The translations under genes and the position numbers were made by a program. The notes below the pieces were generated by a model. It was not told the origin of the DNA. It did no database searches and worked only from the letters and a program-made list of their open reading frames with translations. A stretch of 64,000 nucleotides of DNA, taken from the NCBI GenBank assembly GCA_037925075.1, contig JAXSNR010000001.1, forward strand, positions 32,001 to 96,000, given 5' to 3'. This stretch comes from Aquificaceae bacterium (GTDB taxonomy: Bacteria > Aquificota > Aquificia > Aquificales > Aquificaceae). The first letter of the stretch is position 1. Each line of letters opens with the position of its first letter. Positions 10,073-12,541 of this stretch are shown here, in pieces.

Positions 10073-10525
10073 TTATAAGTCTCTGACAGATGCCATAAGA
10101 ACTTCTTCTACTTCAAGAAATTTCCTTTCCTCCTCCCCTCCAAGCTCGTGGTCGTAGCCAAGAAGATGCACAAAACCATGAACCAAAAGTCTCCTTATCT
10201 CCTCCTCAAGGCTATGCCCTAACTCTCTTGCCTGCCTGCTTGCGGTATCCACAGATATAACAATCTCACCTAAAAGCCTGTACCTTCCCACAGGCTCATC
10301 GTAAATAAAGGAAAGCACATCTGTAGGCTTGTCCTTTCCTCTGAAGTCTCTGTTAAGAGCCCTTATGTCCTCATCATCCGTCAGGTATACGCTTATTTCA
10401 GTTCCTTCAAAACCAACCGCTTCCAAAAGCTTAATGACCGTACTCTTCACCCACGTGAGCTTGACCTTTCCTTTCTTCTTTCTCACCAGAACCCTGTTCT
10501 TCCTTCGCCCTTTCAAATTCTTCAT
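10073..10525 (-). CDS. ybeY: rRNA maturation endoribonuclease YbeY
   Basis: [35 protein letters not shown]. Confidence 0.96.
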
Positions 10526-11465
10526 AGGCTTTTATTATCCTTGCCACTATAGGATGTCTGACCACATCCTCCTCTTTAAACCACACAAAACCGATCCCTT
10601 CTATACCTTGCAAAACTTTTATAGCCTCCACAAGGCCAGACTGCTCTCTCCTCGGTAAGTCTATCTGCGTTATATCGCCTGTTATCACAACCTTTGAACC
10701 AAAACCTATCCTTGTGAGGAACATCTTCATCTGTTCCTTTGTAGAGTTTTGAGCCTCATCAAGGATTATAAAGGCATCGTTAAGGGTCCTCCCCCTCATG
10801 AAGGCAAGGGGTGCTATCTCTATTATGTTCCTTTCAAGCATATAACTTGCCTTGTCGTAGTCCACCATGTCATAAAGGGCGTCGTAAAGGGGTCTAAGGT
10901 ATGGGTCTACCTTTTCCGCTATACCGCCGGGAAGAAAGCCAAGCTTTTCACCAGCCTCCACCGCAGGCCTCGTGAGTATTATTTTGTTTACTTTGTTAGC
11001 CTTCAGATGTGCCAATGCCATAGCCATGGCAAGATAGGTTTTTCCTGTCCCAGCGGGACCTATTCCAAAAACTATATCGTTGTTCCTTATAGCATCTACG
11101 TATATTCTCTGAGTGTGTGTTTTCGGCACTATGGCCTTTTTTCTATGGGTTATCAGTATTACTTCCTCTTTTAGCTCCTCTGGTCTTTCAGACTTTAACT
11201 GGATGTAGTTTTTAGCCCTCTCTCTAACTTCCTGAGAGGTCAGCGTGGACGTTCTTAGCTCCCTTATTATTTCTCTCAAAAATTCATAAAGAGCTTTTAC
11301 TTTGTCTTCTTCACCCCTTATAAGTATCTCCGTCCCTCTTGCGGATATTTTTACATCAAAGAGTTGTGAAAAGTACTTTAGGTTTTCATCCCCCCTGCCC
11401 ACTATGGCATAGAACTTCTCATCAAAGCTACCTAAATCTAACCTTTCTTCTACCTTTTCTGTCAT
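10431..11465 (-). CDS. phoH: PhoH family protein (YbeZ-like)
   Basis: [48 protein letters not shown]; upstream of ybeY. Confidence 0.95.
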
Positions 11466-11528: not shown

Positions 11529-11556
11529 TTGACAAGCCATCACGTCTTCCTATTAT
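11529..11556 (+). promoter_or_regulatory. Sigma70-type promoter for htpX and its leader
   Basis: TTGACA (11529-34), 16 bp spacer, TATTAT (11551-56). Confidence 0.7.
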
Positions 11557-11566
11557 ATTTATGAAC

Positions 11567-11656
11567 CGTGGGCCAAAGCCGCCTGCTGGGGATGGCCCAC
11601 GCAAAAAGGCGGGATACAAATACCCCAGCCCAGGCCGACCGTAAAAGGTGGTCTGG
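11567..11656 (+). ncRNA. Candidate structured RNA (5' leader of htpX), family unknown
   Basis: GC-rich in an AT-rich intergenic region; 9-bp stem, two further complementary pairs from its loop, and a 3' hairpin with a G-U pair. Confidence 0.5.
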
Positions 11657-11671
11657 AAAAGGAAAAAGGAA

Positions 11672-12541
11672 ATGGGCTACGCAATAAGGAGCGTTATACT
11701 TCTTGGACTTCTGACAGGTATTTTTCTGTTTGTGGGCAATCTTATAGCCGGCAAGGCGGGTATGACCATAGCCCTCTTGTTGGCGGGAATAATGAACTTT
11801 CTCGCCTACTGGTTTTCTGACAAGATAGTGCTTGCCATGTACGGAGCAAGGGAAATACCCTACGAGGAGGCTCCATGGCTTCATAGGATGGTGGAAGAGC
11901 TTGCCCAAAGGGCAAACATACCCAAGCCCAAAATCTACCTTGTTCCCATGGAACAGCCCAACGCCTTTGCTACCGGTAGGGGTCCATCTAACGGTGCGGT
12001 TGCGGTGACCTCTGGAATCCTTCACCTTCTAAATGAGAGAGAGCTAAGAGGAGTGCTTGCCCACGAGATGGGGCATATTAAAAACAGGGATGTGCTCGTT
12101 GCCACAATGGCGGCAACCATTGCAGGTGCCATATCCTACCTTGTTAATATGCTTCAGTGGTCTCTCTTGCTTGGACACTCAAGAGATAATGAAAATAACA
12201 ACCCACTTTCCCTTATAGCCAGCATAGCCACGATAATCATCACACCCATAATAGCCACCATAATACAGATGGCTATTTCTCGTTCAAGGGAGTACATGGC
12301 GGACGAGACGGGTGCAAGGATATCGGGAGACCCTCTGGCTCTTGCCAGTGCCCTTGAAAAGATACACAACTATGTGCATCAAATACCCGCAGAGGTCAAC
12401 CAAGGCACCGCACACCTGTTTATAGAAAACCCCCTTTCAGGTCAAGGCATATGGGAGCTTTTCTCTACACACCCCTCCACAGAAAAGAGAATAGCCAGAC
12501 TTAAGGAGCTTGCCAGAGAAATGGGCGTTTTTGCCTACTGA
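11672..12541 (+). CDS. htpX: Membrane zinc metalloprotease HtpX (M48)
   Basis: QPNAFATGR, ELRGVLAHEMGH, SRSREYMADETGA, LFSTHP; likely start ATG 11672. Confidence 0.95.
   Translation: MGYAIRSVILLGLLTGIFLFVGNLIAGKAGMTIALLLAGIMNFLAYWFSDKIVLAMYGAREIPYEEAPWLHRMVEELAQRANIPKPKIYLVPMEQPNAFATGRGPSNGAVAVTSGILHLLNERELRGVLAHEMGHIKNRDVLVATMAATIAGAISYLVNMLQWSLLLGHSRDNENNNPLSLIASIATIIITPIIATIIQMAISRSREYMADETGARISGDPLALASALEKIHNYVHQIPAEVNQGTAHLFIENPLSGQGIWELFSTHPSTEKRIARLKELAREMGVFAY

Follow-up and report, generated by a model that had tools for sequence, protein, structure and literature searches.

The nearest described relatives of the RNA reported here are the guide RNAs of TnpB (omega-RNA or reRNA) from IS605 and IS607 elements, for which a nexus pseudoknot has been reported as universal (10.1101/2023.11.20.567912). 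The RNA lies in the 5′ leader of htpX, within a window of 64,000 nucleotides of an Aquificaceae bacterium (assembly GCA_037925075.1, contig JAXSNR010000001.1, positions 32,001 to 96,000). The source genome of the window is designated G000, other G numbers denote related genomes and L numbers denote loci. The three crossing helices P1, P2 and P3 are referred to as the knot, and a knot copy without an upstream nexus hairpin is referred to as an orphan.

Like the omega-RNAs of IS605 and IS607, mobile copies of the motif overlap the right end of the element and the 3′ end of tnpB, and they contain a nexus hairpin, whose loop is complementary to the 3′ terminus, together with additional stem-loops (10.1101/2023.11.20.567912). 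Unlike them, the htpX copy comes without the nexus, the CCAGG end and a cognate tnpB, and the three-helix knot, which sits within the first post-nexus hairpin, is missing from many relatives. The reRNA derived from RAGATH-18 (IS607 TnpB, ISFba1) is likewise a right-end RNA with pseudoknots, and the ISFba1-type target, AGGAG or GAGGG, is purine-rich and Shine-Dalgarno-like, as here (PMC11061315). Its helix layout is nevertheless different, the knot gave no Rfam match to RAGATH-18, and the TnpB proteins considered here have about 500-560 aa versus 387 aa for ISFba1 (PMC11061315). Preservation of such an RNA in mRNA leaders is not treated in the available parts of that paper.

Three other systems are close in different respects. 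IStron group I introns may, by analogy, also be regarded as an RNA device in an IS605/IS607 element limiting the harm to the host gene (10.1101/2023.11.20.567912); unlike the intron, the module described here is about 90 nt long, remains in the mRNA and outlives the element. Standalone omega-RNAs are likewise right-end RNAs left without effector or transposase, but they are described as acting in trans where an effector is present (PMC10691335), whereas knot orphans without the nexus persist in genomes without a cognate TnpB match. The 5′ pseudoknot of tisB is needed for binding of S1 and the 30S subunit upstream of a poor initiation site (PMC7708055), and this standby site, compared by description and not by sequence, would be the closest analogue of the mechanism proposed below. 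The tisB initiation site is sequestered (PMC7708055), in contrast to the site here, which is predicted to be open but weak.

In the comparison with Rfam no family matched the element at E up to 10 (three weak matches lie elsewhere) and the motif in six related loci gave no match at E up to 1, in agreement with the first-pass annotation, which had recognised no known consensus. The motif was not found in the literature searched, subscription journals being outside the coverage. It is not described in the available parts of PMC4227106, PMC8632094, PMC11109978, PMC11061315, PMC10691335, 10.1101/2023.11.20.567912 and PMC7708055, where the candidate table of PMC4227106 consists of coordinates only and PMC8632094 was compared by its text and one supplement, others of which could list the motif. 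New here are the loss of the nexus and the 3′ pseudoknot from orphans and of the knot from transposon lineages, a controlled comparison of Shine-Dalgarno sequences and the contrast between knot and knotless targets.

The htpX leader and its pairing

A sigma70-type promoter, TTGACA-16-TATTAT, occupies 11529..11556 of the + strand (TTGACA 11529-34, TATTAT 11551-56; 11/12 consensus matches), and from its position transcription of this strand was predicted to start near 11562-11564. A comparable promoter was found upstream of 18 of the 22 knot-bearing htpX loci. One additional sequencing run yielded no contig covering the leader, a result that does not bear on expression. All parts of the leader lie on the same strand. 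P1 (11567..11601), in which CGTGGGCCA at 11567-75 pairs with TGGCCCACG at 11593-601, is variable in sequence with its pairing kept, and its counterpart in the right-end RNA of the transposon is the first post-nexus hairpin. P2 (11579..11612) pairs CCGCCT at 11579-84 with AGGCGG at 11607-12 and has a nearly invariant 5-bp core, and the strongly covarying P3 (11585..11629) pairs GCTGGGG at 11585-91 with CCCCAGC at 11623-29. Between the 3′ strands of P2 and P3 lies the conserved A-rich loop GATACAAATA (11613..11622; consensus RRTANAARTA, partly fixed by the search patterns). The P4 hairpin (11630..11656), of variable sequence, corresponds to the final stem-loop of the transposon right end. It is followed by a purine tail (11657..11671), a decayed transposon end plus spacer, which offers a weak Shine-Dalgarno sequence with GGAGG absent; mobile copies end in NNNACCAGG at the corresponding place. 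The promoter, the three helices, the hairpin and the purine tail had all been placed correctly in the first-pass annotation.

The gene htpX, encoding a zinc metalloprotease (NF002826, 379 bits, above cut-off), extends over 11672..12541 on the + strand and starts with an ATG at 11672 that is common to orthologues, so that GTG 11648 was rejected as its start. A 27-codon ORF from ATG 11561 was also rejected, an ATG there not being evident in orthologues, as was an outward −10 promoter inside the A-rich loop, whose 7-base spacing does not fit and whose flanks covary as RNA. Upstream lies a divergent phoH-like gene (10431..11465, − strand; PhoH models match below cut-off). A second knot copy in the same genome, at G000:C1:402965-403021 (− strand, outside the window), has another P1 and precedes an uncharacterised gene.

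The helices follow in the order P1-P2-P3-P1′-P2′-P3′, so that all three cross, and three mutually crossing perfect helices of at least 6 bp arose in 1 of 3000 dinucleotide shuffles. The first-pass annotation had considered either a compact knot or mutually exclusive switch states: the crossing knot stands as real, and the exclusive states were abandoned because the helices have no bases in common. From the anatomy, P2 and P3 would be stems 1 and 2 of an H-type pseudoknot whose first loop is a single base and whose third is the 10-base A-rich loop, with P1 linking the 5′ end to its long middle loop. By analogy with other H-type pseudoknots the A-rich loop is predicted to form base triples with P2. 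P2 as RNA (CCGCCU/AGGCGG, window 11579-11612) is one pair away from the anti-Shine-Dalgarno/Shine-Dalgarno duplex CCUCCU/AGGAGG, which it possibly mimics.

Covariation was assessed in 87 aligned copies (156 unique matches thinned by identity to 88, with L022 left out). In this alignment 99.4 % of P2/P3 cells are paired and 7 of the 12 P2/P3 pairs change on both sides, a value reached in 0 of 500 shuffles and in no slid control. The covarying pairs are 6/7 in P3, where L208 swaps five of the seven, and 1/5 in P2, which is 100 % paired and shows a C-G to G-C switch in 3/87 copies; the invariance of P2 is partly built in, since four of its pairs were fixed by the search patterns, as was part of P3, whereas most covarying P3 positions were free. 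P1 reaches at least 7 bp in 163 of 166 copies, compared with a mean of 29 (maximum 40) when its strands were cross-paired, and its sequence varies freely among copies. The G-U pairs of variants favour the + strand, as had been proposed earlier from a G-U pair of the 3′ hairpin. The pseudoknot-free fold of the leader has a z of −2.62, a type of fold which cannot show the knot. Taken together, the conservation and covariation proposed earlier as a check bore the element out, and a real conserved RNA fold is almost certain.

Four pattern matches (L096, L121, L132 and L140) were judged to be chance and dropped. L106 was excluded from the alignment and the P1 count, and L012 carries the knot but escaped the pattern used for the core-identity and P1-pairing counts. 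L106:2301-2363 (− strand), from an AT-rich uncultured bacterium, lacks P1 but has P2, P3 and the A-rich loop before an asd-like gene, an arrangement that is possibly the minimal core.

The right end of IS607-type elements

A gene for a TnpB of 500-560 aa (TIGR01766 above cut-off in 2/2) reaches with its 3′ end into the motif in many genomes, and in some of them tnpB lies behind an IS607 serine-recombinase gene (TnpA of L063, NF033518, 224 bits, cut-off 110). A PDB search with the TnpB alignment gave one weak match, to Cas12f1. The full right end consists of the nexus hairpin, P1 with the knot, P4 and ACCAGG, with which the knot-bearing element ends. IS607 family elements have a GG core at their ends and neither inverted repeats nor target duplication; GGAGG was present in 35 of 39 left flanks, GG being fixed by the pattern, and no inverted repeats were seen by eye. 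The gene behind a knot-bearing end has its start codon 2-10 nt after that end. The GGAGG left flank and the start codon so close beyond the end together show insertion at Shine-Dalgarno sites, by which the downstream gene is left with only AGG. A purine-rich target motif has also been reported for another IS607 TnpB group (PMC11061315). An origin of the knot from an IS607 right end is very probable.

At the htpX locus no left end, tnpA, tnpB or intact right end was found. IS607 TnpA above cut-off was found in none of the five genomes searched, G000 included, and G000 gave no match to the cognate TnpB of the knot-bearing element. A currently mobile mini-element at htpX was rejected, the left end being absent and no TnpA scoring above cut-off. 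Of a TnpB from another subfamily, only the zinc-finger tail is present in G000, at G000:C4:2657-2851 (− strand, L224), where contig C4 breaks off. The knot-bearing TnpB family is represented in ten of 24 genus members; other TnpB subfamilies are carried by G016, G024 and G034, and three examined lack the knot at their ends. Internally deleted derivatives of about 550 bp with a tnpB tail, nexus, knot and CCAGG end were observed in G060 (L031, L035) before rpsM-, rpsN- and ccoN-region genes, and are intermediates on the way to orphans. L231 retains a nexus remnant and the end only.

The nexus loop is complementary to the 3′ terminus of the right end, and by eye this pairing changes in step across relatives: CUUGG or CCUGG with CCAGG in IS607 elements, CAGGG with CCCUG in relatives with inverted repeats and CUCGGGG with CCCCGAG in CRISPR-linked ones. 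Of 50 copies called as having a nexus, two of which (L054, L055) look like false calls, 44 end in the CCAGG tail, versus 9 of 117 without a nexus, and at htpX neither the nexus nor CCAGG was found (0/22 loci each). Conversely, several IS607 lineages, two with inverted repeats and one that is CRISPR-linked still have the nexus but no longer the knot, and in G023 knot-bearing and knotless copies exist side by side. Since orphans lose the nexus and the 3′ pairing and TnpB relatives lose the knot, the knot behaves as a module that can be separated from the guide scaffold. In a tree of 44 TnpBs (three of 47 are absent from it) knot-bearing elements lie on both sides of the midpoint root; for that reason the knot looks ancestral in the TnpB family and repeatedly lost, and, if ancestral, it may first have served TnpB. 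The TnpBs of the four knotless IS607 copies checked, which are putative nucleases, have all three RuvC acidic residues.

Two groups of related elements were observed alongside. In L274, L276, L278 and L279 TnpB relatives are followed by CRISPR-like repeats (from about 2760 onward in L274 and L279) and the repeat end CCCCGAG is the complement of their nexus loop CTCGGGG, which suggests a type V-like system arising from the knot-related TnpB family. L211-L222 (G015, G017, G005), L291 and L313 contain sister TnpBs in elements with terminal inverted repeats and not IS607 ends; they keep the nexus, have no knot and no preceding GGAGG, and L216 and L218 show apparent target duplications of 9-10 bp.

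Conservation and distribution of orphan copies

The knot precedes htpX in 22 loci, those of G000 and of 21 of the 24 same-genus genomes; G019 has htpX without the knot, and no htpX locus was obtained from G002 (64 % complete) and G004 (86 %). Identity across 21 htpX loci is 0.965 in the knot core, 0.59 in P1 and 0.48 in the tail, and in the htpX comparison fourfold-degenerate sites are 0.48-0.50 and codon positions 1-2 are 0.95 identical. A core about 97 % identical beside fourfold sites at 0.48 reflects purifying selection on the RNA fold at htpX. In the 14 htpX loci from genomes without a match to the cognate TnpB core identity is 0.976, and selection has likely maintained the knot for a function in cis that does not involve TnpB. 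Resolution of the HtpX tree is low; the knot-free G019 protein is placed on a long branch, as are the out-of-genus rows, which fits a single insertion in the ancestor of the other genus members.

A DNA search matched 40 of 61 related genomes, and a relaxed pattern, which had 0 matches in the control, 45 of 61; the largest number of copies in one genome was 24 (G034). Seven genomes, 94-99 % complete (G003, G008, G011, G016, G018, G021 and G024), had one knot match each. The scan of one genome per species gave 121 loci, mostly in Aquificota, the other taxa being Thermosediminibacterales, Thermoanaerobacterium, Atribacterota, Thermodesulfobacteria, Pyrinomonadaceae and an Archaeoglobaceae bin; the pattern scan of viral contigs gave 0 stretches. 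An orphan with a common P1 sequence was observed in six family f3 genomes (L241, L242 and matches in G038, G048, G054 and G059); it precedes a napA-like gene in the two loci fetched and is a second long-kept locus.

A sense start codon follows P3 by 19-58 nt in 115 of the 117 copies without a nexus, which makes the stand-alone sRNA offered as one option in the first-pass annotation unlikely. The genes behind the knot, named by reading their translations, include rpsT, rpsU, rpsR, rpmF, rplY, rpoA, rho, infC, hfq, ndk, ftsH, glyA, atpA and napA. They number dozens, are unrelated, have no common pathway and differ between genomes, and several copies lie within operons, 13-35 nt after the upstream stop. 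A riboswitch for htpX finds no support in this spread, and the supposed association with heat shock does not hold, copies preceding ribosomal-protein genes, rpoA, rho, ndk, glyA, napA and many others. In a pseudoknot-free model the purine tail (11657-71) has an unpaired probability of 0.47-1.0 at 37 °C and 0.69-1.0 at 70 °C; the wide spread of genes and the mostly open tail therefore disfavour the thermometer reading. What survives of the proposed cis-regulatory RNA is a conserved, uncatalogued, structured 5′ leader RNA under selection, and not its heat-shock role specific to htpX.

Proposed role of the leader and its alternatives

Of 42 families, 35 have a weaker Shine-Dalgarno sequence before the knot-led gene than before its knot-free orthologue in G000 and 7 a stronger one, with medians of −6.8 (knot-led) and −11.9 kcal/mol (knot-free). 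In a separate set GGAGG preceded 1 of 23 knot-led genes versus 19 of 23 knot-free orthologues, and control neighbours without the knot had it in 18/69 on both sides. GGAGG is present at both of the htpX loci without a knot that were examined (−13.0 and −14.1), and the 19 knot-led htpX rows average −6.3. A change from CCAGG to GGAGG needs two substitutions, and GGAGG was found in only 9 of 115 orphans despite synonymous drift at htpX to 48 % identity. Behind an intact right end an ORF of at least 60 codons was present in 47 of 54 cases with the knot versus 6 of 17 without (p 8e-5, an overstatement because the elements compared are related).

These patterns fit a leader allowing gene expression after loss of GGAGG, from which we infer ribosome recruitment. 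As at a standby site, a pseudoknot, supported by covariation, lies upstream of a poor initiation site, its Shine-Dalgarno sequence weak against the controls, and G000 encodes a near full-length S1 (match below the model's cut-off). On the evidence of sequence comparison the best reading, to which we give about even weight, is that the conserved right-end pseudoknot leader helps ribosomes to start on a gene robbed of its GGAGG; hosts would likely retain the knot after loss of the transposon since the leader replaces the cut-away ribosome-binding site. The wider proposition, held slightly more tentatively, is that transposons targeting Shine-Dalgarno sites may carry in their guide-RNA end a separate ribosome-recruiting pseudoknot that rescues the gene and is kept at dozens of genes, many of them housekeeping, in several thermophile phyla.

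The ancestor of the genus would have taken an insertion at the GGAGG of htpX, with the left end, tnpA, tnpB and the nexus hairpin later deleted up to the host promoter and the knot retained since htpX expression depended on it. The P2/P3 H-type pseudoknot, braced by P1 and the A-rich loops, is predicted to bind S1 or the 30S subunit as a standby site adjoining the open purine tail. Inside the transposon the knot would be a harm-limiting device, comparable to the IStron intron.

Several points weigh against the best reading. Since insertion produces a weak site automatically, the weak Shine-Dalgarno sequence shows loss and not the role of the knot, and only persistence is informative. The 9 orphans with GGAGG nevertheless retain the knot, the 7 families with a stronger knot-led site run counter to the trend, and the six knotless elements precede long ORFs as well. 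The knot, which looks ancestral in the TnpB family, may also have served TnpB first. Many bacterial genes are translated well without a Shine-Dalgarno sequence.

Given the same origin, the knot might instead have been retained because it stabilises the mRNA at its 5′ side and protects it against nucleases at high temperature, an explanation considered unlikely. P1 starts about 5-25 nt from the −10 box in htpX loci, the fold is compact and GC-rich, and G000 has RNase E/G; no RNase J scored above cut-off in G000, however, which leaves no obvious 5′-3′ exonuclease to block. Protection of a 5′ end would need no more than a plain hairpin, which leaves the conserved loops unexplained; the copies inside operons, 13-35 nt after an upstream stop, also speak against a stabiliser.

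A switch sensing a ligand or protein (riboswitch, thermometer or site of a global regulator) and spread by the transposon is improbable. Conserved unpaired bases on a rigid pseudoknot recall aptamer cores, and some stress genes lie downstream (htpX, hsp20, hpf and hfq, named from translations), but the downstream genes differ between genomes without a common pathway, the helices do not overlap and the purine tail is predicted by the pseudoknot-free model to be mostly open at both 37 and 70 °C.

That the leader is a standalone omega-RNA, a guide or decoy with TnpB in trans, or a means of homing for its own allele upon arrival of TnpB, is slightly less probable still. Trans-acting examples have been described (PMC10691335), and TnpB of the knot family is present in 10 of 24 genus members. 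The nexus reported as universal (10.1101/2023.11.20.567912) and the CCAGG end are, however, missing in 22/22 htpX loci, the cognate TnpB was not matched in G000 and genomes without it show no drop in conservation.

Small ribozymes are common in mobile elements, and a conserved core with variable peripheral stems would suit an uncatalogued self-cleaving ribozyme processing the transposon transcript and the host mRNA; with no match to any Rfam family, ribozymes included, and no conserved candidate cleavage site beside P1 or P4, this is similarly improbable. A neutral relic homogenised by gene conversion, to which genomes with many similar copies such as G034 (24) might point, is the least probable, as seven genus genomes show one match only and P1 and P4 differ between loci yet pair, with synonymous sites down to 48 % identity.

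The knot leader is thus probably a domesticated piece of TnpB right-end RNA which is itself no guide RNA and has a new role. Whatever its function, strong selection acts on this uncatalogued three-helix pseudoknot, and its more than 160 distinct natural copies, together with knot-free orthologues, make it directly testable. If recruitment of ribosomes by the leader is the correct reading, it would be a natural, compact and heat-stable leader starting translation without a full Shine-Dalgarno sequence and would bear on structure-driven initiation in bacteria. The RNA of a TnpB system, and not its protein, would have been domesticated many times, and insertions of TnpB transposons would have a second way, after IStron splicing, to become harmless.
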